Shown here piece after piece: positions 189 to 38,929 of a DNA stretch of 64,000 nt. Position 1 is the stretch's first letter. The number at the start of each line of letters is the position of its first letter. A model generated the notes under the pieces. The model saw only the letters and a program-made list of their open reading frames with translations. It was not told where the DNA came from and searched no databases. Source of the DNA: Candidatus Multivoradales bacterium (GTDB taxonomy: Bacteria > Acidobacteriota > Thermoanaerobaculia > Multivoradales > J023); NCBI GenBank assembly GCA_965248925.1, contig CBDFLE010000006.1, positions 3,401,040 through 3,465,039 on the forward strand, written 5' to 3'. A program made the position numbers and the translations under genes.

Positions 189-223
189 CAGCGGGCGGGC
201 CTGACGGTGATTGTGAGACTGCA

Positions 224-649
224 ATGAACAGGACTTCTTTAACCATCGTAGGTTCGCTATTGGCGGCCGCAGTCGGCTTGCAGGGCTGCGCACCAGGCCC
301 ATCGCCCAGCGAGTCGCTGGCGATATCCGAGGCTTTTCTGGACCAGATTGCCGCTGAATTTGGGCCGTTTCCGATAGCTATCGACGAAGAAGTCGAGATG
401 GTGGCGGTAGATGGCCGGCCGGCGATGCTGGTCTACAACTATCGGCTGGTCGACATGGAGGCTTCTGAGATCGATGCTAACGCCCTGATTCAATGGACAC
501 AGCCGGCTGTGGTCTTGGAGGTCTGTGGTGCGTCGGAAACCCGTGACAACCTGTTGCACAAGGGTGTCACCTTGCGCTACATCTACCATGACAAGAATCT
601 GAAGCCGGTCGCTTCTTTCGATGTAACTGAGGCCACTTGCGGGCTTTAG
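224..649 (+). CDS. hypothetical lipoprotein
   Basis: MNRTSLTIVGSLLAAAVGLQGC: signal peptide with lipobox L-Q-G-C. Start chosen at ATG 224; ATG 185 is an alternative. Confidence 0.55.
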   Translation: MNRTSLTIVGSLLAAAVGLQGCAPGPSPSESLAISEAFLDQIAAEFGPFPIAIDEEVEMVAVDGRPAMLVYNYRLVDMEASEIDANALIQWTQPAVVLEVCGASETRDNLLHKGVTLRYIYHDKNLKPVASFDVTEATCGL

Positions 650-681
650 TGTTCCCTCCTCAGATCAAGTGTCTAACCGTG

Positions 682-20519: not shown

Positions 20520-20536
20520 CTGGCACCGGCCTTGCT
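20520..20536 (+). promoter_or_regulatory. sigma-54 (-24/-12) promoter cTGGCACcggccTTGCt
   Basis: Matches TGGCAC-N5-TTGC with correct GG…GC spacing. Lies ~78 bp upstream of the grx start. A sigma-54 activator gene sits downstream in the same operon. Confidence 0.45.
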
Positions 20537-20613
20537 GTGCTCTCCTTGCGTTCACTACCGAACGCTCACAATTTGCAGCCCGGTGGAACTTACCGACCGA
20601 AAGGAAAAAAACC

Positions 20614-20865
20614 ATGAGTCATCCCAATCAGCCAGCCACCGTGTACTCCACCACCTGGTGCCCGGACTGTCACCGTGCCAAGGCATTCTTGAAATCCAAC
20701 CAAATCGACTATCGCGAGATCGATATCGAAGCTACCCCCGGCGCCGGCGATCTGATCGCCGAGCACAACGATGGCAAACAGGTGGTGCCGACTCTCGAGA
20801 TCGACGGCCGGTTCTATGGCAATCCGTCTTTACAGGAACTCGGCCAGCTGTTCGGCGTGAGCTGA
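20614..20865 (+). CDS. glutaredoxin-like protein (NrdH/mycoredoxin-type, CPDC active site)
   Basis: MSHPNQPATVYSTTWCPDCHRAKAFL… fits an ~83 aa thioredoxin fold. RBS AAGGAAAAAA upstream. Confidence 0.8.
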   Translation: MSHPNQPATVYSTTWCPDCHRAKAFLKSNQIDYREIDIEATPGAGDLIAEHNDGKQVVPTLEIDGRFYGNPSLQELGQLFGVS

Positions 20866-20920
20866 GCTGGCAGGCGCCGCCGCCCGAGTTCAAAATCAAC
20901 TAGCCCAAAGGAGGCTTCCC

Positions 20921-21948
20921 GTGTCCATTCCAATCGCAGAAACCAAGGTCGACTTCGAGGCGCTCAACTTGAGCGCTGCCGAGCACCGCCGGGTGATCAT
21001 CGTTGGTAGCGGCCCGGCGGGCTATACCGCTGCCCTCTACGCCGCTCGGGCCAGTCTCGATGTGCTGGTCCTGCGTGGCGCCGAGCCCGGTGGCCAGCTG
21101 ACCACCACTCCCGAAGTCGAGAACTACCCGGGCTTTGCCGAAGGGATCGGCGGCTTCGAGCTGATGGACCAGATCGAAGCTCAAGCCAAGCGCTTCGGTG
21201 CCGAGGTGCGCTACGGCACGGTAACGGCTGCCGATCTCGAGCAGCGGCCCTTTCGCTTGCAGGTCGACGGCAGCCAAGTCCTGCTGGCCGATGCGGTGAT
21301 TCTCTCCACCGGCGCCTCGGCACGCTACCTGGGGCTCGACAACGAGAAGCGCCTGCTGGGCCGCGGGGTCTCGGCTTGCGCCACCTGCGACGGCGCCTTC
21401 TTCCGCGACCTTGAGGTGGCGGTGGTCGGCGGCGGTGACACCGCCCTCGAAGAAGCACTATTTCTGACCCGCCTGGCCAGTCGGGTGCATCTGATCCATC
21501 GCCGTGGCGAGCTGCGCGGCTCGAAAATTCTGCAGCAGCGGCTGCTGAGCAACCCGAAGATCGAAGTTCACTGGCACCGCCGGGTCCAGGACATTCTCGG
21601 TCAGGAGCGGACCTCGGGACTGCTGCTCGAAGATCCGCGCGGCGGCACGGAGGTCGAAGAGCTTGCCGTCGACGGGGTCTTCATCGCCATCGGCCACCGG
21701 CCCAACACCGACCTGGTCAGCGGCCAACTGAAGCTCGACGGGCAAGGCTACCTGGTCACCGAAGCCGACAGCGCCCGCACTTCCCGCGCCGGCGTCTTCG
21801 CCTGCGGCGATGTTCAGGACCCGGTCTACCGCCAGGCGATCACCGCCGCCGCCAGTGGCTGTATGGCCGCCCTCGATGCCGAGCGCTGGCTGGCCGTTGA
21901 GCAGCCTGAAGCAACAAGTTCCGCGATCGATCGGGTTACGGTCGCGGC

Positions 21949-21952
<4 letters not shown>
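20921..21952 (+). CDS. trxB: thioredoxin-disulfide reductase
   Basis: FAD site [15 protein letters not shown], redox-active CATCDG, NADPH site [14 protein letters not shown]. Confidence 0.9.
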
Positions 21953-23478
<1,526 letters not shown>

Positions 23479-23655: not shown

Positions 23656-25260
23656 GTGATCGGCCTGATGGCGCTGCTCAGTCTGTTCCTAGTGCCGGCG
23701 GCCGATGCCGACTCCACCGCCCTCGACCGTGCCTTCGAACGGTTCTGGGCGGCCGAGAAGCGGGGTGCGATGAGCCGCGCCAGCGAAGGGATTCTTGCCC
23801 TCGAGCCGGATTTTGCAGACCTCTTGGCGCGCCTGGAGGCCGGTCGCCCGTACTCGGATCGGGTCAAGACTGGTCGCCTGCTGCGCAGCCGCTTGACCCA
23901 CTTTCACTATCTGCTGTTGGTGCCATCGAGCTATGATCCGGCGCGGCGCTACCCACTGCGCTTCTACCTCCATGGCGGCGTCAACCGGCCCGCACCCAGG
24001 CGCCGCGATGGCTCCTGGTGGCGGGGCGACCCCGAGGCGACTGACGAGGATCATCTGGTGGTCGTACCGGTGGCTTGGAACGAGGCCATGTGGTGGCACC
24101 AAAACCAGGCGGAGAGCCTGCCTGCCATTCTCCAGGCGGTTCGCCGGGAGTACAACGTGGACGAGAACCGCACTTCGCTGCTCGGCATCTCGGACGGCGG
24201 TACCGGCGCCTATTTTCATGCCCTTACCGGCCCCACCCCGTGGGCTACCTTCGTGTCGTTGATCGGCCACGCCCGAGTGCTGGCCAACCCGACCCTGGGG
24301 GTCAACAGCCAGTTGTACAGCAGCAACCTGGCCGGGAGAGCAATCTACGCCGTCAACGGTGGCAAGGACCCCCTCTATCCGACCGCTGTCGTCGAGCCAA
24401 TGATGCGTCATTTCGCTGCCCTCGGCGCCGAGGTGGTGTTCCGCCCTAAGCCTCAGGCCGGTCACGATCTGAGCTGGCTGAGCGAAGAGCAACAAGCGAT
24501 CGAGAGCTTCTTGAACAGCCATCCACGCGATCCCCTGCCAGACCGCCTTTCCTGGGAAACCGACAATGTCAAACGCCGCGGTCGCTACCACTGGCTGCGG
24601 ATCACCGAGCTGGGCTCGACCCAAGGCGACAGCGAGCTGCCGGATCCGGATGTTTTTCCCAACCTCCCCCAGCTCAACCTCGGCTTCCTGCCCGTGCGGC
24701 AGGAGTCGAGCCTTCCCGGGGTTCTGGTGGCCTCGGTCGAACGCCGCTCAGCGTCTGCCCGGGCCGGCATCAAGCCAGGGGACCGCCTGTTGCGGGTGGG
24801 CGAAACGCCCGTCGCCGATCTGCAAGCGCTGGCGACGGAGCTCGACCGACAGGGCAACTTTGGACAGACCCTCGACCTAACCATCGATCGCCAGGGCCGG
24901 CAGTTGCAACTCACCCTGCAACTGCCGGCAGCACCGCGGGGTCAAGCGCCAGCGCAGATCTTTCCCAGAAAGCGACCCACCGGCCGGGTCGATGTGGTGC
25001 GCAACGGCTCGCACATCGCAGCTCTCAGCCGTGGTGTTCGCCGCTTCAAGCTGCTCTTGTCACCAAGGCAATTCGACCTTGCCCAGCCCATCCGAGTAAC
25101 GGTCAACGGCCGCGTGGCTTTCCACGGCCAAGTGGTGATCGATCCCGCCACCTTATTGAGACTAGCTGTGATCGACCAGGACCGCACCCAGCTCTACGCT
25201 GCCGAGTTGGAAATCGAGGTGCCGTCGATCCCGCCACCGCGGCCTGCTTCCTCCCACTGA
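23656..25260 (+). CDS. secreted alpha/beta-hydrolase (esterase) with a C-terminal PDZ domain
   Basis: Signal peptide. GxSxG 'GISDGG' with downstream D ('GGKDP') and H ('AGHDL'). PDZ-like 'GIKPGDRLLRVGETPV'. Confidence 0.7.
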   Translation: MIGLMALLSLFLVPAADADSTALDRAFERFWAAEKRGAMSRASEGILALEPDFADLLARLEAGRPYSDRVKTGRLLRSRLTHFHYLLLVPSSYDPARRYPLRFYLHGGVNRPAPRRRDGSWWRGDPEATDEDHLVVVPVAWNEAMWWHQNQAESLPAILQAVRREYNVDENRTSLLGISDGGTGAYFHALTGPTPWATFVSLIGHARVLANPTLGVNSQLYSSNLAGRAIYAVNGGKDPLYPTAVVEPMMRHFAALGAEVVFRPKPQAGHDLSWLSEEQQAIESFLNSHPRDPLPDRLSWETDNVKRRGRYHWLRITELGSTQGDSELPDPDVFPNLPQLNLGFLPVRQESSLPGVLVASVERRSASARAGIKPGDRLLRVGETPVADLQALATELDRQGNFGQTLDLTIDRQGRQLQLTLQLPAAPRGQAPAQIFPRKRPTGRVDVVRNGSHIAALSRGVRRFKLLLSPRQFDLAQPIRVTVNGRVAFHGQVVIDPATLLRLAVIDQDRTQLYAAELEIEVPSIPPPRPASSH

Positions 25261-25506: not shown

Positions 25507-28500
25507 TCAAGGCTGATCCCTGGGCTTGCTGGCTTTTTGCGCTCCCGCCAAGCCACCCGTATCGATCTTGCGCAACGCCGCCAGCAGATCTTTCAACATA
25601 TCGAGATTCTTGAGCGTCTTATCTAGCTCATGCCGCAGCCGTTTGGCCTGGTTGCCGTCGGCGGCTTTGAGGGATTTGGCGAGGGCTTGGACGGCGGGCA
25701 GCAGGCTACTGTCGACGTTGCTGACCATGCGGGTGAGGATCTCGAGCACTCCACTGCCAAGGGTTTGAATGACTTGACCGCCTCGGGGGGCTGCTGCGAT
25801 CGGCGTTTTGCGGACTGCGCTTTGTAAAGCGCTGCCGAGACCTTTGAGGCCGTGGTCGAGGAGTCTCTGAATTTCTTTCAGGTCGACCGCTGGCGGGATT
25901 GGGGCGGGTACTTGGGTCTCTGGGGCCGGCCGCTGGCTGACCTCGGCCAGGGCGGTCAAAGTGTTGTCGAGTTTCTTGATCCAGGGTTCGAGGGCGCTGC
26001 TGAGGTCTGGCCCGGTGGATTCGGCCGCGGGTTGGGCGGCTTGGGCGGCGGCCTGGTCGAGGGTGCGAGCCAGGCTTCCTAGCTGCTCGGACATCAGGCT
26101 TAGCTGGCCGACAACGCGGCTGGTGGGGTCGTCGTCACCGCCCATCGCTTGCACGCGGGCGAAGCCGCGTTTGATTTCTTCCCAGCGTTTGCTCTGTTCC
26201 GGAGTGAGGTGGCCGCGCAGCTCGGCTAGCTTCAGCAAGTTGGCTTCGGCGCCAGAGGTCAGGGTTTGGGCCTCGCCTTGGTAGTGATCGTCGATCAACG
26301 CTTCGAGTTCGGCTTGGTTCATTACCGGCACGACCTTTTCGGCCAGTTTGTTCATGTTGCGATAGCTGCCCTGGAGTTGAAATTTGGGCTCGGTGCGGTA
26401 GGCGTCGTCTTGGGCGGCGGAGTCGATATATTGACGGTTGACCGCTAGCAGCACCTCTCGTACTCGCAGAAGTTTGCTCAGCACGCTGAGCACTTCTTCG
26501 AGCTCGACGGCGGAGTAGGGGTGGTCGAGCTGATCGGGAGTTGTCGCGCTATCACCGCCGGCCATCCGCACTAGTTTGGCAATGTCGCCGCGCTCGCGAC
26601 TGCCCAAGGGCGCTAGCACGGGGTTGGAGGTCAGGGCGTTCTCAAGGAAGCTGAGGGCAAACAGATCACCTTTGCCCGCCAGGACGTCGCCCAGGTTGTA
26701 AACATCGGCGCGGTTGGCCAGCATGTCGGGAATCTGGAATTTATCTCCGGACTCGGTGTAGGGATTGCCCGCCATGGTGATGGCGAAGCGTTTGCCACGC
26801 AGGTCGTAAGTGCGGGCGCGGTCGCGCCACACTCCTTCCATGCGACGCTGGGCGTCGCAGAGGGAAATAAACTTTTGCAATAACTCGGGGTGGGTGTGCT
26901 GGATGTCGTCGAGGTAAAGCAGTACGTTGTTGCCCATCTCTAGGGCGAAGCTGATCTTCTCGACTTCTTGGCGCGCGGTGGCATTGGGCGCTTCGGCCGG
27001 GTCGAGGGAGGTGACGCCGTGGCCCAGGGCCGGGCCGTTTATCTTTACAAATACCAGGCCGAGGCGGTTGGCGATGTACTCCATTAGCGTTGTCTTGCCA
27101 TAGCCCGGTGGCGAGATCAGCAGCAGCAGGCCCATCTGGTCGGTGCGTTTGTCCTCGCCGGTGGCGCCGAGCTGCTTGGCCAGGTTGTCGCCCACTAGCG
27201 GCAGGTAGACATCATTAATCAGCTGGTTGCGGACGAAGGCGCTCATTACTCGGGGGCGGAACTCGTCGAGGCGCAGCCGCTGTTTTTCTTCTTCTAGCAG
27301 GCGGTGGCGGAGTTCCTGGAAGCGGCGGAAGCCGGGGATATGCTGGTCGCGGAAGACGGCGGTGCGGGCCAGCAGCTCGTCGAGGCGCAAGGGCAGGCAG
27401 CGCCTCTTTATGCGCGGATGTTGGCCCAGCAGACCCTCGACGGTGGCGCTCTGCTGGGCGACCGAACTGTGGCGTTCGAGGTTGCCGTCGGTGAGCAGGG
27501 CAGTGACCGCTTCGTCGAGGGCGGGCGCCTGCTCAGCGAGTTTCGGGTCATTGGCGATCAGTGCCCCTAGCCAGGCAGTGGCTAGCTGGCGGCGCTCAGC
27601 CAGGGCGTCGCCGAGAGCTTCGAGATCGGTCAGCAAGCCCTTTTTTCCCTTGCCGAGCTCGCCTTGCAGTGCTTCGATCAAGCCTTGGGCGTCAGCGCTG
27701 AGCACGAAGCTCGGCCGCTCGACGCCGAGCACGGCGAAGAGGTAGGCGCCAGCGGTGTGGGCGTCGGCCTGGGCTAGCTCTAGGCGGTGGTCTTGGTGGA
27801 AGGTGGCAATGGCGGCGGCCAGCTCGCGGGTCAGTTCGCCGATCGCCGGGCTGTGGCGCAGAGTCTCGCGCAGCCGGGTCAGGCTGCGGGCGCGGCGATG
27901 CCAGCCGGCGGTTCTGGGATCGGCGCCCAGCTCGGCCCAGAAGAGGGCGGCGGCGGCACGAGGGCTGGCGGCAAAACGCAGCAGGCCGGCGGCGGCGCGT
28001 AGCTCGACCAGATGTTCGAGGATCCGCGCCGCGTCGTGATCGTGGACGCCGCGCTCGTAGCCCTCGTCGTAGCGTTGTCCGGCCAGTCGGCGCACCAACT
28101 CTAGTAAGCCGCCCTCTTGCAAGCGCGCCTCGCTGAGACTGTGCAGGTCGATTTCACCATCGCCCTGTTCGGCAGCGCGCAGGATCTCGCTGGCCAGGTA
28201 CTCGCCGCGGTAGACCTGGTCGTTCTCGGAGATCAAGAGCTGGTGCCAGTAGTCGCGAGCGTCGTCGATTGCCGGGTCGTCGATGGGGGCGTGGAAATCG
28301 GTGCCGGTGAGGTAGAAGGCCATCGACTCGCCGCGGGGTACCAGGGTGAGGTCGAAGGGTTGGGTGTTGACACTGAAACGGTGCCGGCCGAGCTTGATGA
28401 CGGTGGCGCCGTCTTCGAAGATGTCGCGCCGGTCGCGCATCGCCCGCGCGGCGTCTTCGCGCGCCGACTTGAGCTTCGAGGCGAGTTCTTCGGCGCGCAC

Positions 28501-31014
28501 ACTCTCGCCGAGCCCACGCAGCCGTTCGCCCAGGTCGCGCAGCTTCTCTACCATCGCGTCGCTGGCGAAGTAGGCGTTGAGCTGATCGGTGCTCTCGAAG
28601 CTGGCGCCGCGCCGGGTCACGCCGCTGAGAATGCGTTCGGCCGCCGCCAGCAAGCGCCCGGCTTGGCGTTGGCGCTGGTCGAGCAGGGTTTGCTTGCGTG
28701 AACTGAAGGCCTCGTAGACCTCTTCGCGCTTGGTCGCCAGCTCGTCCGTGAACTCGTCGAGTTCGCCGAAGCGGCTCTCCAGCTCTTCCAGCTGAAGCAT
28801 CAACTTGGCCAGCTGAGCGTCGCATTTCTCCGGTGTGCCGGCCAGACCGAGAGCGCCGGTGACCGCCTGGGCGAAGAGTTTGAACTGGGCGCCGAACTCG
28901 GCCTTGCCCTCCTCGGTGCGCAGCTCGCGGTGGCGGTTCTCGACCAACGCCCGAGCCCGGTTGAGCGTCGCCAGCACCTCGGAGATGGACTCTAGGATCT
29001 GGGTACGGACGGTGGCATCGTCGATGTCGAGCCCGCTGACCACTTCGGTGAGCAACTCCTGGTTGGCGCTGATCTGCGCCAGTTCGGTGGTGATTTGCTC
29101 GACTTCGCTGGCCTTGGTGGCGGTCTCGCCTTGTTCGGCGAGTTCGGCCAGCCGCTGGTGGTAGGGGGCCAAAGCGTCGTCGGCGAGGAGGAACTCGGTG
29201 GCTCTACCGGAGAGGGTTTCGATTTCTTCCAGCACCCGGGCTTCGAGACCAGCGATGCGCTGCAAATCGGCGTAGCGCACCTCCTGCAAGGAAATCAGGT
29301 GGCCGCGTTGGCGGCGTAGGCCGGCCAATGCCTCGACAAAGGGATCAATGCTGTCGATGGCGCTATGGCGCAGCTCGGACCACAGAGCCTCGAGGGTGCT
29401 TTCTGCCTCGTCCACCGCTGCTCGCGCCTGGCGCCGCAGGGCTTCGACCTTCTCGAATTCGTCGATGATCAGCTCGGCGCTGGCTCGTAGCTCGCCCAGC
29501 GGGGTGCCGAGGTCGCCGACTTCCTGGTGGCCGTACCAGTAGTAGTTGTCGGCAGCACGGGTGGCGGCGGCGATCAGCTCTTCGTAGATCGCCGCGCTGG
29601 GCTGCTGTTCGTCGACCATGCGGCGCAAGCTGAAGGCGTCGCTAATGCCGCGCACCAACTCGGCGTTGCCGACTTTGTCCAGGAACGAACCACTGGCTGG
29701 TGCCGCCGCGGCGTGCTCGTCGCTGGTGAAGGGGGTCTGCCAGATCTGCATCGGGTGAACCCGAGTGGGTTCGTCGGAGTCAGCGCGGAACACCACTAGC
29801 CGGCCGTCGCTGAAGAGGGAGTAGCCGTGGCAGTGGATCGGATTCTGCACTTCTTTGCGGATCAGGTTGTAGGGCAGCAGGATCGAACGTCCTTCCTGGC
29901 GCTCGTGAAAGACGTAGAGCACATCTTCGCCGTTGGGTGATCGAACTCGGCGCAGAAACTCCATGTCGGCGACTTCGCCATCGAAGGCTTTGACCTCGCC
30001 GCTCTGTAAGGTGTAGCCGCCCGGAAAAACGATGCCGTGGTCCTCGGGCAGTTGCTGGCAGGCCTGGCCGATGGCGTCGAGCCGCACCACTGTCTGAGTG
30101 CGGGTGTTGAACACCAAGTAGCGGTGCTCGGCCTCTTTGTAAGGCAGCACCTCGATCAGGATCAGCACCCCGAGCTGGGCCCAGCGGACGGTGGCGTCGG
30201 CCAGCGATTGGTTGGGCTCGTCGACCGGTTCACGGTAGATGCCGCGGCCGTCCTCGGTGTTGTCTTCGACCTTCACTGTCAAGTCGCCGCCGACGGTTTC
30301 GACGAACACTAAGTCGAGGATCGAGATGTGTGGATGGCGACCGAGGACGTGGTCGTCGCGGCTGGTTTCGGTCCACTCGAAGTCGTGGGCTGGTGGGAAG
30401 AGGTGATCGCGCTCGCCACGGTTGTCGAGGTAGGTGACCTCGCCTGCCGGGCTCACCGCCCAGCGGAATGCCTTGAGGTCGCCAGCTCCTGCGCCGATTT
30501 GGAACACCGCCACGATGCGCCCCCCGCTGCGCATCAACTGCAAGAGGCGAGTGTCTTTGTAGTAGCGGTAGAGTTCGTGGAACTCTCCTACGAAGCGCTT
30601 TTCGGCGAGGAAATTACCGGGCTCGTCGGTGGCCACCGGTTGGAAGGCAAAGCCATCTTCAGTGGCGGCGAAGCGGTAGAGGCTGAAGACATCGTCGATG
30701 CGGGTGTCCCGCTTCAGGCCGATGAAGACGTTGTAGCCGAAGAGCAGCAGCTCGCCGACCTCGATGATGTCGCGCGGCACCGAGTTGTTGTCGGTGCGGA
30801 TGCGCTCGTTACCGATGACCTCCAGCTCGCTGCCGCCGAAAAGCTCAGTGCGCTGCTGATTGAGCTGGCCGGCCCGTTCACCGAGCCGGCTGGCGTGCTC
30901 CTCGAGCCGGGCGCGGAGGATCTCGTAGGTGCCCTGGTCGAGGCGCGGCGCGGCGTCCTCAGCTGCCCCGTCGGTCGCTGGTGTTGCCGCCGTGGGTGTC
31001 TTTTCCTCACTCAT
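25507..31014 (-). CDS. giant (1835 aa) coiled-coil protein with an embedded MoxR/AAA_5-type ATPase module; function unknown
   Basis: Walker A 'LLISPPGYGKTTL'. Walker B-like 'VLLYLDDIQH'. AAA_5-like 'RFAITMAGNPY…PDMLANRADVY' at ~aa 1290-1450. Long heptad-like helical regions (aa ~480-1250 and the C-terminus). Immediately downstream of the flotillin gene with a 10 bp gap. Confidence 0.8.
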   Translation of the reverse strand: MSEEKTPTAATPATDGAAEDAAPRLDQGTYEILRARLEEHASRLGERAGQLNQQRTELFGGSELEVIGNERIRTDNNSVPRDIIEVGELLLFGYNVFIGLKRDTRIDDVFSLYRFAATEDGFAFQPVATDEPGNFLAEKRFVGEFHELYRYYKDTRLLQLMRSGGRIVAVFQIGAGAGDLKAFRWAVSPAGEVTYLDNRGERDHLFPPAHDFEWTETSRDDHVLGRHPHISILDLVFVETVGGDLTVKVEDNTEDGRGIYREPVDEPNQSLADATVRWAQLGVLILIEVLPYKEAEHRYLVFNTRTQTVVRLDAIGQACQQLPEDHGIVFPGGYTLQSGEVKAFDGEVADMEFLRRVRSPNGEDVLYVFHERQEGRSILLPYNLIRKEVQNPIHCHGYSLFSDGRLVVFRADSDEPTRVHPMQIWQTPFTSDEHAAAAPASGSFLDKVGNAELVRGISDAFSLRRMVDEQQPSAAIYEELIAAATRAADNYYWYGHQEVGDLGTPLGELRASAELIIDEFEKVEALRRQARAAVDEAESTLEALWSELRHSAIDSIDPFVEALAGLRRQRGHLISLQEVRYADLQRIAGLEARVLEEIETLSGRATEFLLADDALAPYHQRLAELAEQGETATKASEVEQITTELAQISANQELLTEVVSGLDIDDATVRTQILESISEVLATLNRARALVENRHRELRTEEGKAEFGAQFKLFAQAVTGALGLAGTPEKCDAQLAKLMLQLEELESRFGELDEFTDELATKREEVYEAFSSRKQTLLDQRQRQAGRLLAAAERILSGVTRRGASFESTDQLNAYFASDAMVEKLRDLGERLRGLGESVRAEELASKLKSAREDAARAMRDRRDIFEDGATVIKLGRHRFSVNTQPFDLTLVPRGESMAFYLTGTDFHAPIDDPAIDDARDYWHQLLISENDQVYRGEYLASEILRAAEQGDGEIDLHSLSEARLQEGGLLELVRRLAGQRYDEGYERGVHDHDAARILEHLVELRAAAGLLRFAASPRAAAALFWAELGADPRTAGWHRRARSLTRLRETLRHSPAIGELTRELAAAIATFHQDHRLELAQADAHTAGAYLFAVLGVERPSFVLSADAQGLIEALQGELGKGKKGLLTDLEALGDALAERRQLATAWLGALIANDPKLAEQAPALDEAVTALLTDGNLERHSSVAQQSATVEGLLGQHPRIKRRCLPLRLDELLARTAVFRDQHIPGFRRFQELRHRLLEEEKQRLRLDEFRPRVMSAFVRNQLINDVYLPLVGDNLAKQLGATGEDKRTDQMGLLLLISPPGYGKTTLMEYIANRLGLVFVKINGPALGHGVTSLDPAEAPNATARQEVEKISFALEMGNNVLLYLDDIQHTHPELLQKFISLCDAQRRMEGVWRDRARTYDLRGKRFAITMAGNPYTESGDKFQIPDMLANRADVYNLGDVLAGKGDLFALSFLENALTSNPVLAPLGSRERGDIAKLVRMAGGDSATTPDQLDHPYSAVELEEVLSVLSKLLRVREVLLAVNRQYIDSAAQDDAYRTEPKFQLQGSYRNMNKLAEKVVPVMNQAELEALIDDHYQGEAQTLTSGAEANLLKLAELRGHLTPEQSKRWEEIKRGFARVQAMGGDDDPTSRVVGQLSLMSEQLGSLARTLDQAAAQAAQPAAESTGPDLSSALEPWIKKLDNTLTALAEVSQRPAPETQVPAPIPPAVDLKEIQRLLDHGLKGLGSALQSAVRKTPIAAAPRGGQVIQTLGSGVLEILTRMVSNVDSSLLPAVQALAKSLKAADGNQAKRLRHELDKTLKNLDMLKDLLAALRKIDTGGLAGAQKASKPRDQP

Positions 31015-31024
31015 GGCGCCCTCC

Positions 31025-32977
31025 TCAGGAGTCGCCGAGATCTGTCAGCTTGGCACTGCCGAGCCCCAGCTTTTGGGCGACTTCGGCCAACTCGCCGAGC
31101 TTCGCCTTTTGCTCGCCACCGCTAGTTGCCATCAGCTTCATCAACAACGCGGAAACGGTGAGGTTCTGCACCTCGCCGGGGGAGATAGCAGCGTTGGACA
31201 GCACATCCTTGAGATCGGCGGTTAGGCTTCTATCGCCCTGCAAGTAGTCGCGGAAAGCGGTCTGCACGGTACCGCTCTTGGAGACGAAGCCGTCGACCGC
31301 GCGGCCTGCCGACATGGCACCCACCAGGCGATCGAAGAACACGCTCTCACCACCGACGATATCGATCTTGGCGTTTTCCAAGCCCTTGGAGATGATTTCG
31401 GCTTGAGCCTCGGCGATCTGCCGTTGGTTGTCGATCGCCGACAGTTCGATCTCTTTGCCGGCGGCGAGGCGCAGGCGATATTCCTCGTGCTCGCGGCTGG
31501 CGCCGTCGAGAGCTTTCATTGCCGCCGCCTTCTCGGTCAAACCGGCAGCTTCGCCTTTGAGCTTTTCTTCGATGGCGGTGGCTTCGGCGAGCCCGTGCTC
31601 GCGCAGCACCCGCGCCTTGGCCAGGCCCATCTTCTCGGTGGCTTCGGCGTCGCGATCTTTGACTTCCACCGCTGCCAGGCCGGCGGCGGCGGTTTCCGCC
31701 TGGATGCCCTCGGCGAGGCGGATTTTGCCCTTGGCTAGGCGTTCGGTGGCTTGCAGCTCGGCGTCGGCCATCACCAGCAGTTCGCGGGCTTTGAACTCGG
31801 CTGCTTTCTCGGCTGCCTCAGCGGCCTTGATGTCTTTGACCAGCAACTCCTGGGCGGCGCCCTCGGCGGTGATGATGGTGGCTTGCTTGGTGCGATCGGC
31901 CTCCTCGACCATGCGCAGCCGTTTGATCTCTTCTTCCTTCTCGGCGACAGTGCAGTCCACCGCCACCCGCTCGCGGATGACGTTGGCGATTTCCCGTTTC
32001 TCGTACTCGACCTCTTTGTCTTTGGCGATGCGTTGCAGCTCGGTCTCGCGCTCGCGGGCGATGACCTCGATCAAGCGGTCCTTCTCGACCCGCTCGGTTT
32101 CTACCGCCACCACCCGCTCGCGGTTCTTGGCCGCGACCTGGACCTCGCGGTCTAGATTTTCCTGCTGCACCGCCACGATCTCTTCGGTCTTCAGCCGTGC
32201 TTGCTCGGCTTTGAGCTGCTCTTCGGCCTGCACTTTCAAGGTCTCGGCTTGCTCGCGGGCTTGCACCGTCTGGATCTCGCGCTGCTGCCGGGCCAGGGCC
32301 TCGGCCTTCTGGCGCTCGAGTTCGAAGATCGCCTCGGCGGCTTCGACATCCTGCTTGGTGATCTGTTTCTTTTCGGTATTCTGGAACTCGTTGGTGCGGA
32401 CGTGTTCGATCGAAGTCAGCTCGGTGATTTTGCGGATTCCCTGGGCATCGAGAATGTTGAATTCGTCGAGCTGCCGTAGCGGTGTCTGCTCGAGGTAGTC
32501 GATGGCAGCGTCTTCCAAGGAGTAACCGTTCAGGTCGGTGCCGATCAAATCGATGATCTGGTCGCGGAACTCGTTGCGCATGGTGTAGAGGTCAACGAAA
32601 TCAAGCTGCTTGCCAACCGTCTTGAGGGCTTCTGAGAATTTGGCCGAGAAGAGCTGCTCCATGGTCTGTTGGTCGGAAGCGCGCTCGCAGCCGATCGCCT
32701 GCGCCACTTTGATGACATCGTCGACGGTCTTATTGACCCGCACAAAAAAAGTAACTTTGATGTCGGCGCGGATGTTGTCGCGGCAGATCAGACCTTCCGT
32801 TCCGCGGCGATCGATTTCGATCGTCTTGACCGAGATATCCATCATTTCCGCTTTATGGACCACCGGCCAGACCATGCGGCCGGTGAAGCTCACGTTGACG
32901 CTCTCCGAACCCACGCGGCTGACGATCAGCGCGCGACCCTGTTTGACTTTGATGATTCCGAATCCCAAAAGTGGCAT
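31025..32977 (-). CDS. flotillin / SPFH (band-7) family protein (YqiK-like)
   Basis: N-terminus 'MPLLGFGIIKVKQGRALIVSRVG…' plus a PHB domain, followed by a long Ala/Glu-rich coiled-coil (EAxxA repeats) and a C-terminal tail. Confidence 0.85.
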   Translation of the reverse strand: MPLLGFGIIKVKQGRALIVSRVGSESVNVSFTGRMVWPVVHKAEMMDISVKTIEIDRRGTEGLICRDNIRADIKVTFFVRVNKTVDDVIKVAQAIGCERASDQQTMEQLFSAKFSEALKTVGKQLDFVDLYTMRNEFRDQIIDLIGTDLNGYSLEDAAIDYLEQTPLRQLDEFNILDAQGIRKITELTSIEHVRTNEFQNTEKKQITKQDVEAAEAIFELERQKAEALARQQREIQTVQAREQAETLKVQAEEQLKAEQARLKTEEIVAVQQENLDREVQVAAKNRERVVAVETERVEKDRLIEVIARERETELQRIAKDKEVEYEKREIANVIRERVAVDCTVAEKEEEIKRLRMVEEADRTKQATIITAEGAAQELLVKDIKAAEAAEKAAEFKARELLVMADAELQATERLAKGKIRLAEGIQAETAAAGLAAVEVKDRDAEATEKMGLAKARVLREHGLAEATAIEEKLKGEAAGLTEKAAAMKALDGASREHEEYRLRLAAGKEIELSAIDNQRQIAEAQAEIISKGLENAKIDIVGGESVFFDRLVGAMSAGRAVDGFVSKSGTVQTAFRDYLQGDRSLTADLKDVLSNAAISPGEVQNLTVSALLMKLMATSGGEQKAKLGELAEVAQKLGLGSAKLTDLGDS

Positions 32978-33077
32978 CTGCGTCTCCTCTAGGCTGTGGT
33001 CGCTACCGGGCTATAGTTCGGTCCGAGAAGCGGGGTAAAGACTCAAGTGAAGTGCTGTTCCTGGGCGGCAGCCGTGA

Positions 33078-33854
33078 TTAGGTAGTTTCACTTTCGCCAT
33101 CATCTCTCAGTTGATCGCGAGCGGCGGTGACCAGGAAGACTTCACGATCCTTGTCATAGTCGAAAATCAAGGCTTGGCTGTTGCGGCGCAACTCGTTTGG
33201 CAGCCGGGCGCGCACCTGGAGCAACAGCGAAGCACCGTCATCGTGCAACTCTGCTTGGCCGAAGTTCTCATCGACCCGCTGGGTAGTGACCCGGCACAGC
33301 CGACCCACCAGTTCCCGGCGTCGCCGTGCCGGTGCCGGCACCATCAGCTTGCGCACCGGTTTGATCGCCACGGCGGTGGCCGTTACCGCCAGGGTGATCG
33401 CAGCGGCGGTCACCACCAGGGCCAAGACAGCGCCCTTCAACGCCAGCTGTTTCATCTGTGGCAACAGCTCCATGCCAGCATAAGTGAACAACCAGGCAAA
33501 GAAAATCAAGAGGCTGAAGGTGATTGAAACTGGCACCTCGCCAATCCCTAGCATGCCCATCAACCCGTGGTGCGAAGAACCGCCGTGAGCGCCATCTGCG
33601 CCGTCGGCAACCTCTCCCAGGCCTGCACCGAGACTCTCTCCCAAACCCTCTCCAAGAGCTTCGGCGGCACCCTCCGCAATCCCCTCGACTGCCCCTTCGG
33701 CGGCTCCCTCCAGGCCCTCCAACATGTCGAAGTTGAGACCGGTGAAGAAAGAGAGCAACCAGTAGAGGCTAATCAAGATCAGCAAAACGCTGAAGATCGC
33801 CGTCGGCAATGAGAAGGCGGCGTCGATGAATTCGCTGAGTGATTCGGGCATCAT
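33078..33854 (-). CDS. NfeD/YqiJ-like membrane protein (flotillin partner)
   Basis: N-terminal TM helices, a Gly/Ala/Glu-rich linker and a C-terminal OB-like soluble domain. Sits upstream of the flotillin gene as in yqiJ-yqiK. Confidence 0.65.
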   Translation of the reverse strand: MMPESLSEFIDAAFSLPTAIFSVLLILISLYWLLSFFTGLNFDMLEGLEGAAEGAVEGIAEGAAEALGEGLGESLGAGLGEVADGADGAHGGSSHHGLMGMLGIGEVPVSITFSLLIFFAWLFTYAGMELLPQMKQLALKGAVLALVVTAAAITLAVTATAVAIKPVRKLMVPAPARRRRELVGRLCRVTTQRVDENFGQAELHDDGASLLLQVRARLPNELRRNSQALIFDYDKDREVFLVTAARDQLRDDGESETT

Positions 33855-34064
33855 GATGTGGTGGCCGCCGCATGCCGGACCTCGAAGCAGGACTCGACCG
33901 AGTGGGACGATGGTCGCCGCGGCCTTGATCGACCGAATCTCAGTTCGCGAACCGGCTTGGTTTGAAGTACGGGGAACCGAACCGGGCTATTCGCCGGCTG
34001 GACGAGGAGCAGCGCGGGGATGGCGATGGCTGCCGCTCCTGCGCTGGTGATCAACCTCTGCTCC

Positions 34065-36344
34065 TCAGTAGCCCCACTCTGGCCACAGGGCTTCGGTGCC
34101 GGTGACCTTGCCCAGGCCCTCACAGTACATCCGCATGGTTTCCACCAGACCGGGCTCGAGCACATGCTTGCCCTCGGCAGTGCGGCGGAAAAGGTGTTTC
34201 CAGGTCTCCAGCGTGCCCAGCTCGATCTGACGGCCGCGGAGCTGGTCGGTCAGCCGCCCCAGGCGATAAAGCAGCGCCACCGTACCGCAGGTGGTGAAAT
34301 ACGAACCAGCTTTCAGGGAGTCGATCCACTCTGCGAGATCGGTGGCGCTGGTGAAGCGGTGTACCGAGTCTGCGAGTTCCGGGGAAGGTTCGGTGGCGCA
34401 GCTGACCAAGGCATGGGGCCGCAGGTCGAGGAAGCCGTTGTTGCTGATCACCCAATCGCGGATGACGGCGATCTCAAGGTTGAGCGGTTCGGCGACTTGG
34501 GCCAAAGTGCGGTGTAGGTCGCCGGAGTTGCTCATCGCGAGGTCTAGTGGCGCCAAGTAGGGGCCGACCAGGAGTCGATTGGCATCGCTGTCCGGTTGCT
34601 GATAGACGATGGGCGTACCTAATGAGGTGATCGTTTGAATGTAGTCGCGGATTGCGTCGGTGACCTGTTTGAGGAAATGGTCGCGGCCGGGTCGATCACT
34701 TTCGGTCGCTGGAGCCTCGAGGCCGAGCAGGCGGCCGGTCGCGGCGGGGCTGTCGATTTCGCAAAGTTGGCCGAAGAGGTTTGCCAGCCGGCTGGGATCG
34801 AGATCTTCGAGATTCTCGAAGCAGGGTAGCGCGGTGTGCTGCCAGAAGAAGCTCTCGAGGTCCGTCGCTGCCTCGTTCAGCAGTCCATCGTCAAACTCAT
34901 CGAGGTGCCGGGCGAGGTCCAGCAGCCGCAGCAGCAACATCAGCAGGCCGAGTTCATGCAGCCGTGCTTGGTGGGTCGACGAGCCCAAAGCCTGGAAAGC
35001 CTGCGGGCAGAAGGTCCCCAGATGGGCGCGTTCGAGTTCAGGAGTATTTGCTAGCAAGCGCAGGGCGAAAGCGGCGTTCTCAGTCTCTTCGTAGTACGAG
35101 ATCTTGTCTTGGAACCAATCGCGGCGACGCTCGGTGCCAAATACCGCGTGGCGCACCAGCACGACAGCGAGTTCTTCCGGGATCGCCACCTTCATGACGT
35201 TGTAGAGGGCAACGCAGTTGGCGACCGAGAATAGGCCGTTCTCGCCTGAGCGTACCGCGGCGTCGACCCGCAGCTCGCGGCCGGCGCCAAAGTTCAAGCG
35301 TTGAAGGGCGGTGCCATCGATGGGCACCTGTGCGGTGGGGTAGAGGCGGATCTTGCCGCTCTCCAAATCGCTCGCAGGCAGCACTGGCTGGTCGCTATTG
35401 GCGATCGACGATAGGCCCCGATGCACCGCCCGGCCCAGCGCTAGTTGGCAGTTGAAGTCCACTGTATCGATGCCGATCGCCGCGGCGGTCACCAGAGCGT
35501 CGAAACCGTTGTCCAGATACAACTGGGTGAGGTCGTCGGCGAAGAACTTCTTGTCGACCAGCTTCTTGCCCAGGGCGCTGTGGGCAAAGCCCAGACGAAT
35601 CTCAGGGACGACACCATCGACCCGGTACATGCCACCGACCGCGGTAGTGTGGGCGATCACCACATAGCGGGCATGCTGCTGCTGGATCTCGGCCAGGCCG
35701 CTGACAAAACGATGCAGGTATTGCGTCTTGATGCGCTGCGGGACTCGGTGGTCGACAACGTTCTCAGTGGCGATCAGCCGATCGATCACCCCCAGGGTGT
35801 AGGTGGCCACGGAGGGCAGCGGAATTGCCACCACCACAGCGTGCAGCAGGTGGTCGTCGAGGCCGCGGACGAACTCCAGGAAGGGTTGGGGCTGGGCCAG
35901 GAAGTAGCTGACCATGGACCTCTCTAAGTCGAAACGGTCTCCTTGCTCAAGTCGCGCCGCCTGTAGGTTCTGAACCAAGTTCTCCGGCAATGCCAAATGC
36001 AGCAGCGAGAAATGCAGGTCGATACAGCTGTCGACTCGGTAGTGCTGTCGGGGCTCGATTTCTTCGACCGTGGTCAGCCTTCCCATGGCTAGACGCAGCC
36101 GTTGCGCGAACAGATCGATCTCCTCGGTGGTTGAGCCGGTGGCATGGACCTCGACCCGCAGTTGCTGCGGCCTGAAGCGCTTCGAGCGCAGGCTCAACCG
36201 GCAGAGTTCGAGGATGGTCGCCCCACCCACCGCGCCGGTACCACCGAAGATCACCAGGCGGATCGGCTCGTCTTCGCCACCGGGTAAGAGGCGATGTGCA
36301 AGCAGGTGTTCCAGGGATTCGAACTCGTGATACAGCGTCCGCAT
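34065..36344 (-). CDS. hypothetical 759-aa protein with an N-terminal NAD(P)-binding Rossmann motif
   Basis: 'LVIFGGTGAVGGATI' is a GxGxxG dinucleotide-binding fingerprint. The rest is unrecognised. Lies 68 bp downstream of the NACHT gene on the same strand. Confidence 0.65.
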   Translation of the reverse strand: MRTLYHEFESLEHLLAHRLLPGGEDEPIRLVIFGGTGAVGGATILELCRLSLRSKRFRPQQLRVEVHATGSTTEEIDLFAQRLRLAMGRLTTVEEIEPRQHYRVDSCIDLHFSLLHLALPENLVQNLQAARLEQGDRFDLERSMVSYFLAQPQPFLEFVRGLDDHLLHAVVVAIPLPSVATYTLGVIDRLIATENVVDHRVPQRIKTQYLHRFVSGLAEIQQQHARYVVIAHTTAVGGMYRVDGVVPEIRLGFAHSALGKKLVDKKFFADDLTQLYLDNGFDALVTAAAIGIDTVDFNCQLALGRAVHRGLSSIANSDQPVLPASDLESGKIRLYPTAQVPIDGTALQRLNFGAGRELRVDAAVRSGENGLFSVANCVALYNVMKVAIPEELAVVLVRHAVFGTERRRDWFQDKISYYEETENAAFALRLLANTPELERAHLGTFCPQAFQALGSSTHQARLHELGLLMLLLRLLDLARHLDEFDDGLLNEAATDLESFFWQHTALPCFENLEDLDPSRLANLFGQLCEIDSPAATGRLLGLEAPATESDRPGRDHFLKQVTDAIRDYIQTITSLGTPIVYQQPDSDANRLLVGPYLAPLDLAMSNSGDLHRTLAQVAEPLNLEIAVIRDWVISNNGFLDLRPHALVSCATEPSPELADSVHRFTSATDLAEWIDSLKAGSYFTTCGTVALLYRLGRLTDQLRGRQIELGTLETWKHLFRRTAEGKHVLEPGLVETMRMYCEGLGKVTGTEALWPEWGY

Positions 36345-36412: not shown

Positions 36413-38929
36413 TCAGGGTAGCGAAGACGGACCTTGCCTCGGTGATGGGTACCGTGACGAGCGGTGCGCTGAGCGCTCTTCTACAGAACCTCGCGCCAGG
36501 TGTTCCATCAAATAGCGATGAGCAAAGATGTAACCACCGCCCACCCGGCGTAGTAAGCCGCTGCGGCATTGGTCTTCGAGGAAGTTCACCAGCCTGGCCG
36601 GTACTTTGCCGCGCAGCCGCAGCAGGGCGCGCAAGGAGAGGTGTTTCAGCAGGTCGAAGCCACCGAACCAAAGACTTCCCAAGCCGCCCGCGATCGCGGG
36701 TAGGGTGACTTTCATCTCGCCGAGGCGGACCGCCAGGCGCAGGGGTTGGCCATGCCAGCTCTGTAGCCCGCGCGCTAGCAGGCCGGCGGAGAGAACCGCC
36801 CCAGCCAACAGCAGGCCGCCGACTAGGGCATTGCGGGCTGACAGCCAAATGCCTTGGTTGGGTCGAACAGAGCGCTCGACCCGGCGGCCCAGAAGGCCGA
36901 GCCAGACGGCGCCGAAACAACCTAGCACCAGCATCGCGTGCAGGAATTCCCAGGCCCAGGAGCCTGGTGCGGCGGCGCTGTCAGGGTGGAGGAGATTCAG
37001 CCAGGCGATCACCAAGAGGCGCAGAATCGCTCCCACCAGGGCGCCGAGCAGCGCCCCGCGCAGCGCCTCACGCCACGACCAGACCAATGCCTCGACGGTG
37101 GCGATGTCGCGCTCGGGTCCGCGGTGCCAGCCGTTCAGGCCGAAGATCAGCAGGAAGCACAGGCCGGGTCCCAAGATCGCTGAGAGCGGAATGGTGCCGT
37201 CCAAAGTATTCGACACTTGGCTAGAGATCGCCACCACCAGCAAGACAGAGGCGAGGAGATAGATCGCGGCCGCCCAGCGTCGCCCCGTCAACTGGAGCCG
37301 CCACCAGAGGCTGTCGAGGACGGCGATTGCCAAGCCTCCCAGGACGCCGGTGATCAGCGGCGCTAGCGGAAGCCTGTCGGGGAACCTCTGCCAGTAGACC
37401 ACTAGCCAACAAGTTGCCATCATCAAGCTGGCGGCGAGCCGCGAGATCGCCAGGTAGACCAGCCGTTCCCCGGTACTGTCTAACCAGCTGGGTTGCAAAC
37501 ACTCCAAGTGCAGGATCGACTGGTTGTGATCGAGCATGCTGCGCGCCAACCAGCCGAGCCCGGCGGGCTGGCGGGTGACGCTCTCGCCCCTGCTGTCGCG
37601 GTGTTCAATCAGCCTGTCGATGAAGAGACCGACTAGGGTACGGCGTTCGTCTTCGAGGTCAAGAGGGGAAGATTGGTTGGATCTTTCGACGTAGGCACGG
37701 CTGATCCAGCGCAACATCAGCGGCGAGTCGAGCAGCTCTAGGCGGGGTGAGTCGGGCCGGGTCAATTCGCTGAGGTCGGCACCGGGGTGGTGGGCGCGCA
37801 GAAAATCGATGGCCTGTCGGCTGTCGATGGGTTCTAGCCCCACCGCCGCGCCGAGCCGCAAGGGTCGGTCCGCGCCGTCTTTGCAGGTTGTCGCCAGCCG
37901 GTACTCGGCGCTGCGGCAGGTCAAGGCGACCGCCGCGAAGCCCTGTTGGTTACGAAAGCGGTTGATCGCTTCGACCGACCGCCGTCGGCTGTCGGCGGCC
38001 ACCTCATCGAGACCGTCCAGTAAGAGCATCAGGTGATTGGCGAGCAGCCAGCGGCGGCCGACCGCGGCTGGCACCTGGTAGCGCATGCCGAGCTCTTCGA
38101 CCACCCAGTCGAGCAGCTCACCGCGGCGCCAGGAAGCCAAGCGCAGGACCACCGGGATGGGTTCTGCGAGATCCCCCCGCGCTTGGGCGATGGCGTGCCG
38201 AGCAAGCATTAGCAGGGCGGTGGTTTTTCCGCTGCCGGGTTCGCCGAGGATCAGCAGGGCGCGGCCTGAGTCTTCGAACAGCTGCGGCAACTCGCTAATT
38301 TCTGAACTTTCGCCGACCTCCTGCTCACTCAGTTTCAGCCGCCAGGGCTGAAAGACGGCTCGCGCCAGCCGCCGCATGCGCAAGTCGAGGCTGGGAGTGA
38401 CCAGCGTTTCCTTGAGCAGGCTAACGATCCAGAAGCGCTCGACCTTGTCGAGCAGGATGAGTTGTTGCTGGCGCTCACGCCGATGTTCGCGGCGGCGTTC
38501 GCCACCGTGGCGGCGTTCCTCAGCGAGGTCGTTGGAGAGCACGTTGTCGGCTTGGGAGTCGCTGACCCGCTGGGGAGAAGTGTCGGTGTTGCTTGCTGGT
38601 GCTGGCTGGACCCGTGCCACCAGCCGGTAGCCGCGTTTGGGTACGGTCTGGATGTATTTCGGCTGACGAGCGTCGTCGCCGAAGGCCCTGCGCAACTCCC
38701 AGATGCAGTGAGTCAGCACCGCCTCGCCGACAAACGAATCGCCCCACACCGCGCTTAGCAGTTCCTCCCGTGAGCGGACTCGGCCCTCTTCTTCAATCAA
38801 CTCCAGCAGCAGGGCAGCAGACTTTGGATGCAGGCGTTGTTGGCGATCACCTAGCGTGCCGTAGTCGGTCGACAGCTCTCCAGCGGCGGGGTCAAAGCGC
38901 CAGGTTCCGACAAGAATTTCGCTCGACAA
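36413..38929 (-). CDS. STAND-type regulator: N-terminal OmpR/CadC-type winged-helix DNA-binding domain + NACHT NTPase + C-terminal ~8-TM domain
   Basis: wHTH 'ELLSAVWGDSFVGEAVLTHCIWELRRAF…VPKRGYRL'. NACHT Walker A 'GEPGSGKTT' and Walker B 'LLLLDGLDEV'. Multiple hydrophobic helices in the last ~400 aa. Confidence 0.8.
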   Translation of the reverse strand: MSSEILVGTWRFDPAAGELSTDYGTLGDRQQRLHPKSAALLLELIEEEGRVRSREELLSAVWGDSFVGEAVLTHCIWELRRAFGDDARQPKYIQTVPKRGYRLVARVQPAPASNTDTSPQRVSDSQADNVLSNDLAEERRHGGERRREHRRERQQQLILLDKVERFWIVSLLKETLVTPSLDLRMRRLARAVFQPWRLKLSEQEVGESSEISELPQLFEDSGRALLILGEPGSGKTTALLMLARHAIAQARGDLAEPIPVVLRLASWRRGELLDWVVEELGMRYQVPAAVGRRWLLANHLMLLLDGLDEVAADSRRRSVEAINRFRNQQGFAAVALTCRSAEYRLATTCKDGADRPLRLGAAVGLEPIDSRQAIDFLRAHHPGADLSELTRPDSPRLELLDSPLMLRWISRAYVERSNQSSPLDLEDERRTLVGLFIDRLIEHRDSRGESVTRQPAGLGWLARSMLDHNQSILHLECLQPSWLDSTGERLVYLAISRLAASLMMATCWLVVYWQRFPDRLPLAPLITGVLGGLAIAVLDSLWWRLQLTGRRWAAAIYLLASVLLVVAISSQVSNTLDGTIPLSAILGPGLCFLLIFGLNGWHRGPERDIATVEALVWSWREALRGALLGALVGAILRLLVIAWLNLLHPDSAAAPGSWAWEFLHAMLVLGCFGAVWLGLLGRRVERSVRPNQGIWLSARNALVGGLLLAGAVLSAGLLARGLQSWHGQPLRLAVRLGEMKVTLPAIAGGLGSLWFGGFDLLKHLSLRALLRLRGKVPARLVNFLEDQCRSGLLRRVGGGYIFAHRYLMEHLARGSVEERSAHRSSRYPSPRQGPSSLP

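Follow-up and report, generated by a model that had tools for sequence, protein, structure and literature searches.

Does a very large ATPase gene that directly follows an NfeD-flotillin gene pair in an acidobacterial genome represent a new type of membrane-associated system, or is it part of a known one? The question was raised by a stretch of 64,000 nucleotides from Candidatus Multivoradales bacterium (contig CBDFLE010000006.1, positions 3,401,040 to 3,465,039; the whole stretch is called the window in the following), in which genes for an NfeD-like membrane protein, a flotillin and a giant AAA+ protein follow one another on the minus strand. In a previous reading, which was based on the nucleotide sequence without database searches (the sequence-only reading), it had been noted that a gene for a protein of 1835 amino acids (aa) begins 10 bp after the flotillin gene on the same strand, and these coordinates were reproduced exactly. 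It had also been stated that the arrangement is not a described system, and this part had to be given up: the trio is already contained in the operons of Ravi et al. (2024) and in the bacABCDEF cluster of Pseudomonas aeruginosa. The window almost certainly carries an abbreviated, PspA-less form of this known conserved operon, which is composed of genes for a YqiJ-type NfeD protein, a flotillin and a propeller/coiled-coil AAA+ ATPase. Nothing at the locus is new in kind; it is a known module with minor local variations.

Ravi et al. (mSystems 2024, PMC11237479; preprint 2020) described operons of a CesT/Tir-PspA dyad together with three other components, namely a Band-7/flotillin protein, a YqiJ/YuaF protein with three transmembrane (TM) segments and a beta-propeller AAA+ ATPase. 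In addition, they reported that "abbreviated operons" without the CesT/Tir-PspA dyad are widely distributed (PMC11237479). The window resembles these abbreviated operons in the three protein types, in their order and in their common strand, the genes being separated by gaps of 100 bp and 10 bp, and the same pattern was reproduced in a survey of 80 loci (see below). Two differences were found. The architecture of Ravi et al. includes an N-terminal TM segment on flotillin, which is missing from the window flotillin, and in the window a lineage-specific gene for a 759-aa protein precedes nfeD on the same strand.

The second description of the module is the bacABCDEF cluster of P. aeruginosa, which is biofilm-associated (Mace et al., 2008, PMC2587700; PMC10948618). 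BacC, BacD and BacE are orthologues of the window trio in the same order, and they exhibited 27%, 47% and 50% identity, respectively, to the window proteins over the full length (E 1e-18 for BacC; 1710 residues for BacE). In contrast to the window, in the bac cluster the trio is preceded by BacA (YjfI/DUF2170) and BacB (PspA) and followed by BacF (PLD), and a tblastn search of the whole 64-kb window with BacA, BacB and BacF yielded nothing significant. In P. aeruginosa the ATPase family is represented by a protein of 1746 aa with the domains DUF3686/AAA, the cluster of which has 3222 member sequences. The order of its locus is DUF2170, PspA_IM30, a 213-aa protein, a 688-aa protein, the 1746-aa ATPase, PLDc_2, YaeQ, RecJ and Peptidase_M4, and we take this flank to be PA3732-PA3727, followed by PA3726, recJ and lasB (to PA3724) in the gene numbering of strain PAO1. 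It was shown by reverse transcription PCR in strain PA14 that products span every bac junction, including bacD-bacE and bacE-bacF, and thus the genes are co-transcribed (PMC10948618). In a bacA mutant of PA14 all six Bac proteins were elevated together, by 6- to 13-fold (PMC10948618). In a 2026 survey of the SPFH proteins of P. aeruginosa, BacD was named "PaFlo3" and its NfeD partner was noted, but the ATPase was not discussed; PA3728 was found in the literature only incidentally, in mutation lists. In Escherichia coli K-12 the yqiJ and yqiK genes are homologous to the first two genes of the window trio and have the same order, but no large ATPase gene follows yqiK.

The conservation of the trio was analyzed with a scan of one genome per species. 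At E <= 1e-10 the ATPase family comprises more than 5,700 clusters, and the full-length architecture is the same in nearly all of them. The scan yielded 545 confirmed relatives, from which 80 loci were kept; 77 of them were assessable, while three had too little upstream sequence. The loci belong to Acidobacteriota, Myxococcota, Actinomycetota, Planctomycetota, Eremiobacterota, Gemmatimonadota (Longimicrobium) and Gamma- and Betaproteobacteria, and thus to at least seven phyla; the closest relatives of the giant window protein were encoded in Acidobacteriota metagenome-assembled genomes (MAGs) and had about 62% identity. Tblastn analyses with the window proteins revealed that in 70 of the 77 assessable loci the ATPase gene has a flotillin orthologue as its direct upstream neighbor in the same orientation, and this orthologue is usually preceded by that of NfeD. 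The distance between the flotillin stop codon and the start of the aligned ATPase sequence was at most 400 bp in 55/67 loci, and in nine actinobacterial loci the two genes overlapped by 4 bp. This gene order is far beyond chance. The seven exceptions, in which flotillin is not directly upstream, all stem from Sorangium, Polyangiaceae or related Myxococcales (L029, L032, L034, L035, L037, L054 and L061). An all-against-all clustering of the open reading frames (ORFs) of the 80 loci did not reveal a fourth conserved gene, as none occurred in more than 11 loci and only lineage-specific neighbors were found. Therefore, the core consists of exactly three genes with variable surroundings. In the sequence-only reading it had been asked whether the giant gene recurs 3' of flotillin across phyla, and this is clearly the case. 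Its proposal of a three-component membrane-associated unit was borne out by the cross-phylum conservation of the trio, and a lack of the giant gene beside flotillin in related genomes, which it had named as a counter-argument, was not what was observed.

In the window the three genes are packed for co-translation. The flotillin stop codon TGA (31027-31025) is directly followed by a GGAGG motif and then by the ATPase start codon at 31014, which results in the gap of 10 bp (Table 1). A consensus scan of the minus strand did not reveal a terminator-like hairpin between the three genes, and a promoter-like site was absent from the 10-bp as well as from the 100-bp gap. A terminator or promoter between flotillin and the giant gene had been regarded beforehand as a finding that would separate the two, and neither was detected. 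The sole promoter-like site that the scan revealed on the minus strand is at 36408-36380, further upstream of nfeD.

The assignment of the first two proteins was addressed with hydropathy plots, domain searches and profile comparisons. In the NfeD-like protein, three hydrophobic segments (residues 8-42, 98-131 and 135-165) are followed by an acidic linker rich in Gly, Ala and Glu and by a C-terminal beta domain of about residues 180-245. As a single sequence it matched Pfam YqiJ_N with 22.1 bits, which is under the curated cut-off of 23. The flotillin is built from an SPFH/band-7 domain, a long coiled coil rich in Ala and Glu, and a flotillin C-terminal region, and the single window sequence remained similarly under the curated cut-off of Pfam Band_7 (20.6 bits compared with 23.6), which was matched by 7 of 28 flotillin orthologues (best E 2.3e-12). 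Profiles, i.e., family alignments of orthologues, were compared by hhalign with the E. coli K-12 proteins from NC_000913.3. The NfeD profile matched YqiJ with a probability of 95.6% (E 1.1e-8) in the region of the second and third membrane segments and of the C-terminal beta domain, and the flotillin profile matched YqiK with a probability of 99.9% (E 1.4e-31) over 387 columns. The yqiJ/yqiK-like label, which the pair had received before, could thus be confirmed with the family profiles. Sequence searches against NCBIfam, PADLOC and PDB, the latter also with both family profiles, gave no useful match for flotillin or NfeD.

The N-terminus of the window flotillin deviates from that of its family. 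Nearly all of about 70 flotillin orthologues have an N-terminal TM helix of about 25 residues, whereas the window copy starts with MPLLGFGIIKVKQG, is devoid of any hydrophobic segment and has kept only the tail of the helix, MPLLGFGII. The spacer between nfeD and the flotillin gene (32978-33077) contains an in-frame stop codon upstream of flotillin, and a TM remnant was found in none of its frames. For these two reasons the missing helix is read as a real local deletion and not as a mis-called start codon. The loss of the helix is regarded as a local variant, and not as a ground for excluding the window from the operon family.

The third protein was analyzed with Pfam, structure prediction and fold comparison. 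It lacks hydrophobic segments according to hydropathy. It matched PF12458 DUF3686 ("ATPase involved in DNA repair") with an E of 1.4e-212 at residues 44-492, PF25472 DUF7902 at residues 613-697, and AAA_5/AAA at about residues 1297-1420. AAA_5 was the best Pfam AAA model (E 3.9e-7), and AAA and RuvB_N matched too. Two AlphaFold2 models, which were built with 46 homologues, had a mean pLDDT (predicted local distance difference test) of 82 and 80, respectively, and the predicted domains are listed in Table 1; for the compact helical domain of about residues 936-1250 the pLDDT was mostly above 90 in the second model. Foldseek searches against PDB with the N-terminal part retrieved only generic propellers (paraoxonase, CyRPA, prolyl oligopeptidase, WD40/Kelch). 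With the ATPase module the nearest folds were RuvB, NorQ/CbbQ (MoxR family), MCM and ClpB, at an E of about 1e-5 to 1e-4. In a PDB sequence search the giant protein matched only p97-type ATPases, and these in the Walker A region alone.

The motifs of the ATPase module were inspected in an alignment of 47 sequences with about 45-65% identity. The Walker A motif SPPGYGKTT (residues 1301-1309, 27088-27114), the Walker B motif LYLDD (residues 1366-1370), the sensor-1 motif GNP (residues 1416-1418), the candidate arginine finger R1435 in LANRAD and the lid motif GSYRNMNK (residues 1549-1556) were all invariant or nearly so. The Walker B motif ends with Asp-Asp (residues 1369-1370, 26905-26910) and not with the usual Asp-Glu, and because this was the case in 47/47 aligned members it is a family trait, which may lead to slow or regulated hydrolysis. 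The domain models, the fold matches and the nearly invariant motifs make it very probable that the giant protein is a soluble AAA+ ATPase that is active, forms a single ring and carries propeller and coiled coil as a large appendage. With the MoxR family of AAA+ proteins it shares AAA_5 as the best Pfam model and NorQ/CbbQ among the top folds, and its pattern GNP-x-E-x-G...P-x-x-L-x-x-R presumably resembles the MoxR sensor-1/arginine finger region, which is taken as a lead only. In contrast to MoxR systems, there is no VWA gene nearby, the protein is seven times larger, and RuvB scores at least as well.

In public databases the giant protein is called "DNA repair ATPase", "AAA family ATPase" or "MoxR-like ATPase". 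A role as a DNA-repair ATPase would be in line with the Pfam description and the NCBI name, with RuvB chains being the top structural neighbors of the AAA+ core, and with weak NCBIfam RuvB matches over about 45 residues. However, RuvB is similar only in the generic AAA+ core and the Walker A region (22 bits compared with a cut-off of 282), and NorQ, MCM and ClpB score about as well. Neither a nuclease nor a helicase nor a DNA-binding domain was found with Pfam and NCBIfam, the constant partners of the ATPase gene encode a membrane protein with three segments and a flotillin, and no support for the name was found in the literature. A DNA-repair function is regarded as extremely improbable, and no basis was found for the widespread annotation "DNA repair ATPase".

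What, then, might the three proteins do together? PspA belongs to the ESCRT-III superfamily. In published reports, SPFH proteins are described to form large rings or cages on membranes, with which NfeD partners co-assemble (QmcA-YbbJ), HflK/C cages are described to house the AAA+ protease FtsH, and membrane fusion and fission on liposomes are reported for PspA. In the proposed mechanism NfeD and flotillin would assemble into an SPFH oligomer, which would serve as a scaffold at the inner membrane on its cytoplasmic side. The ATPase, presumably as a hexamer, would dock on this scaffold via its propeller and its long coiled-coil arm. During membrane stress it would hydrolyze ATP in order to put the scaffold together, take it apart or change its shape. 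Alternatively, its target could be polymers that work with the scaffold, e.g., of a PspA homologue encoded elsewhere. The role of the ATPase would resemble that of Vps4 on ESCRT-III, and not that of a DNA-repair enzyme. Membership of the described operon family together with a scaffold-remodeling mechanism, taken as one combined statement, is judged to be rather probable; the specific mechanism, ATP-driven remodeling at a flotillin/NfeD scaffold under membrane stress, is put forward tentatively as the most likely function.

The membrane-stress part of the proposal is supported by gene neighborhoods in Proteobacteria. Directly upstream of the trio PspA is encoded in ten of the proteobacterial loci and YjfI (DUF2170) in nine, and a PLD (HKD) gene is located downstream in eight. 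Furthermore, the trio is present on the 425-kb plasmid pQBR103 (Pseudomonas fluorescens SBW25, L083, 86458-103335), directly after yjfKLMC-like genes, so that the genetic link to PspA or to yjf-type membrane-stress genes includes this plasmid. HflK/C-FtsH and ESCRT-III/Vps4 are functional analogies only. Each consists of a membrane-associated oligomeric scaffold and an AAA+ hexamer; the link of the proteobacterial versions to PspA is a further point of likeness to ESCRT-III/Vps4. The window ATPase differs from FtsH and Vps4 in that it has neither a protease domain (no peptidase domain was found with Pfam) nor an MIT domain, and in that the best matches of its AAA+ core do not assign this core to the classical FtsH/Vps4 type. 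The N-terminal half with propeller and coiled coil has no counterpart in either of the two systems.

The main competing explanation is membrane-protein quality control, in which the substrate would be a client protein instead of the scaffold. The scaffold would confine damaged or unfolded membrane proteins, the AAA+ hexamer would extract or unfold these clients, and the propeller would bind the clients or an adaptor, similar to FtsH in the HflK/C cage but without a protease domain. The HflK/C-FtsH pair is a precedent for an SPFH cage around an AAA+ machine, propellers are common as substrate-binding modules, the unfoldases ClpB, ClpA and Skd3 were among the structural neighbors, and in Staphylococcus aureus FloA-NfeD is reported to stabilize unfolded proteins. 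However, no protease or partner chaperone was conserved in the neighborhood of the 80 loci, and the AAA+ core is nearer to RuvB and NorQ/CbbQ than to classical unfoldases, all of these similarities being weak (E about 1e-5). Because the constant partner of the ATPase is flotillin/NfeD (70/77 loci), and not PspA (10/80), a chaperone or a protease, the scaffold is favored over clients as the target, and quality control is considered to be unlikely.

Membrane remodeling and defense had both been listed among the candidate roles in the sequence-only reading; the former fits best, while defense did not gain support. In an anti-phage or conflict system flotillin/NfeD would be the membrane effector and the large NTPase the sensor. 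Large NTPases with propeller repeats do occur in conflict systems, PADLOC gave weak matches of the giant protein to LmuB (E 2.7e-5) and IetA (E 1.5e-4), a STAND NTPase gene is located 2.6 kb upstream, and the eight proteobacterial loci mentioned above have a PLD (HKD) gene downstream of that for the ATPase. However, the PADLOC matches extend only over the coiled-coil region or over Walker A, and none was obtained for flotillin or NfeD. The match to LmuB (residues 520-892) falls into the helical region, and generic coiled-coil similarity is its simplest reading. The ATPase family was found in 0 of 50,697 phage records and in only 13 of 72,556 plasmid records, these 13 being for the most part megaplasmids or chromids, and the P. 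aeruginosa cluster with its 3222 members has a fixed chromosomal position near genes for a RecJ-family protein and an M4 metalloprotease. In addition, the flanking genes are not the same in all lineages, and the STAND gene is no conserved neighbor of the module. A function in defense is thus very unlikely.

Several observations weigh against the proposed remodeling of a flotillin/NfeD scaffold. The window flotillin has lost its membrane helix; perhaps it is attached to the membrane through NfeD. The window does not contain a PspA gene in its 64 kb, and the Asp-Asp Walker B motif makes the hydrolysis rate uncertain. In P. aeruginosa the biofilm, rhamnolipid, swarming and virulence phenotypes stem from work on bacA and bacB mutants rather than on bacE (PMC10948618, PMC2587700), and SPFH deletions in PA14 reportedly resulted in mild phenotypes only. 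Lastly, in two of the myxobacterial exceptions (L034 and L061) flotillin is located 5.5-6.4 kb upstream of the ATPase gene, which suggests that an insertion split the module in these loci.

The three-gene core is linked more tightly and more widely (70/77 loci, at least seven phyla) than the association with PspA (10/80) through which it was first noticed. This argues that flotillin/NfeD, and not PspA, is the obligate partner of the ATPase. The ATPase is an obvious candidate for the assembly or turnover of bacterial flotillin scaffolds. It is tempting to speculate that the giant ATPase is a dedicated remodeler of flotillin/NfeD assemblies and, where linked, of PspA polymers, and that it would be a bacterial Vps4 counterpart for scaffolds of the SPFH/ESCRT-III type; this generalization is advanced with still more reserve than the mechanism at the locus itself. 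If true, it would explain the turnover of scaffolds that are ATP-independent, and the name "DNA repair ATPase" would be wrong in thousands of database entries. The idea of a remodeler has already been hinted at by Ravi et al. (2024, PMC11237479), and only its demonstration would be new. A genetically tractable orthologue exists with bacE (PA3728) of P. aeruginosa.

Table 1. Genes, junctions and predicted domains of the NfeD-flotillin-ATPase module in the window
Feature	Nucleotides	Residues	Strand	Basis and remarks
YqiJ-type short NfeD membrane protein, 258 aa	33078-33854		-	ORF and translation; orthologue of BacC (PA3730)
nfeD/flotillin spacer, 100 bp	32978-33077		-	GGAGA 6 nt 5' of flotillin ATG
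YqiK-type flotillin, 650 aa	31025-32977		-	ORF; orthologue of BacD (PA3729, PaFlo3)
Flotillin/ATPase junction, 10 bp	31015-31024		-	GGAGG Shine-Dalgarno motif at 31024-31020, 5 nt before ATG
Giant soluble AAA+ ATPase, 1835 aa	25507-31014		-	ORF, ATG at 31014; orthologue of BacE (PA3728)
ATPase: predicted helix		29-59	-	AlphaFold2 model, mean pLDDT 82
ATPase: predicted beta-propeller domain, core of DUF3686	29737-30822	65-426	-	AlphaFold2 model, Foldseek
ATPase: predicted long helical coiled-coil-like region, helices of up to 58 residues, including DUF7902	28420-29685	444-865	-	Model, Pfam
ATPase: predicted small beta domain, then compact all-helical domain	27265-28401	872-910, then about 936-1250	-	Models
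ATPase: predicted single AAA+ module with lid	26095-27147	about 1290-1640	-	Pfam AAA_5/AAA, alignment, model
ATPase: C-terminal tail, low-confidence helices and Pro/Ala-rich linkers, poorly conserved	25510-26094	1641-1835	-	Alignment, model

The surroundings of the module were also inspected. The 759-aa ORF (34065-36344, minus strand), which has an N-terminal GxGxxG (Rossmann-like) motif, is located 210 bp upstream of nfeD. It did not match any entry of Pfam, NCBIfam or PDB, and it is syntenic only in the closest relative, the Acidobacteriota MAG L003 (2578-4860, 51% identity). Because the promoter-like site mentioned above is just upstream of this gene, it may head a four-gene transcript in the lineage of the window. 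An ORF of 104 aa (33851-34165) was rejected as spurious because of its overlap with the end of the 759-aa ORF and the lack of a family match. Further upstream, a protein of 838 aa (36413-38929, minus strand) is encoded, in which an N-terminal winged-helix domain of the OmpR/CadC type is fused to a NACHT/STAND NTPase. It matched part of the antiphage protein EruA, i.e., its NACHT region, with 54 bits compared with a cut-off of 1000, and its gene was not found conserved beside the module in other genomes. On the other side, the gene for a PDZ-domain protein of 534 aa (23656-25260, plus strand) is oriented towards the ATPase gene, from whose 3' end it is separated by 246 bp, and it is not conserved beside the module elsewhere.

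A sigma-54 promoter has been proposed for the bac operon (PMC10948618). On the minus strand upstream of nfeD (33855-34064) no -24/-12 match was found, and across the window such matches occurred at chance level (73 found compared with 74 expected). The one perfect -24/-12 consensus, TGGCACCGGCCTTGC, is located at 20521-20535 (plus strand), about 390 bp ahead of a gene for a pyridine-nucleotide-disulphide oxidoreductase (20921-21952, plus strand). This gene overlaps by 4 bp with a gene for an enhancer-binding protein with GAF, sigma-54-activator and HTH_8 domains (21949-23478, plus strand), which lies about 2 kb past the 3' end of the ATPase gene. The region 20521-23478 probably represents a separate sigma-54-dependent operon on the strand opposite to the ATPase gene. 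Sigma-54 control of the trio, which had been considered due to the nearby enhancer-binding-protein gene, was rejected, because nfeD is not preceded by a -24/-12 element and the perfect site serves the other operon.

A few variations were observed among the surveyed loci. Eight of them (L060, L066, L069, L072, L076, L077, L078 and L080) have 0.4-2 kb of extra sequence between the flotillin and the ATPase gene, which may encode an additional small gene; they are mostly of the Lysobacter type or from Lampropedia, and L060 is a Myxococcota MAG. In the metagenome-assembled chromosome L051 the NfeD orthologue (4876-5592) is encoded on the strand opposite to flotillin and ATPase, which is the sole case in the 80 loci. 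The yjfKLMC-like genes of pQBR103 encode DUF2491, DUF350, DUF1190 and glutathionylspermidine-synthase family proteins, and a gene for an H-NS-like protein of the MvaT/MvaU type follows the trio. This plasmid thus unites two types of PspA-associated operons that are treated separately by Ravi et al.

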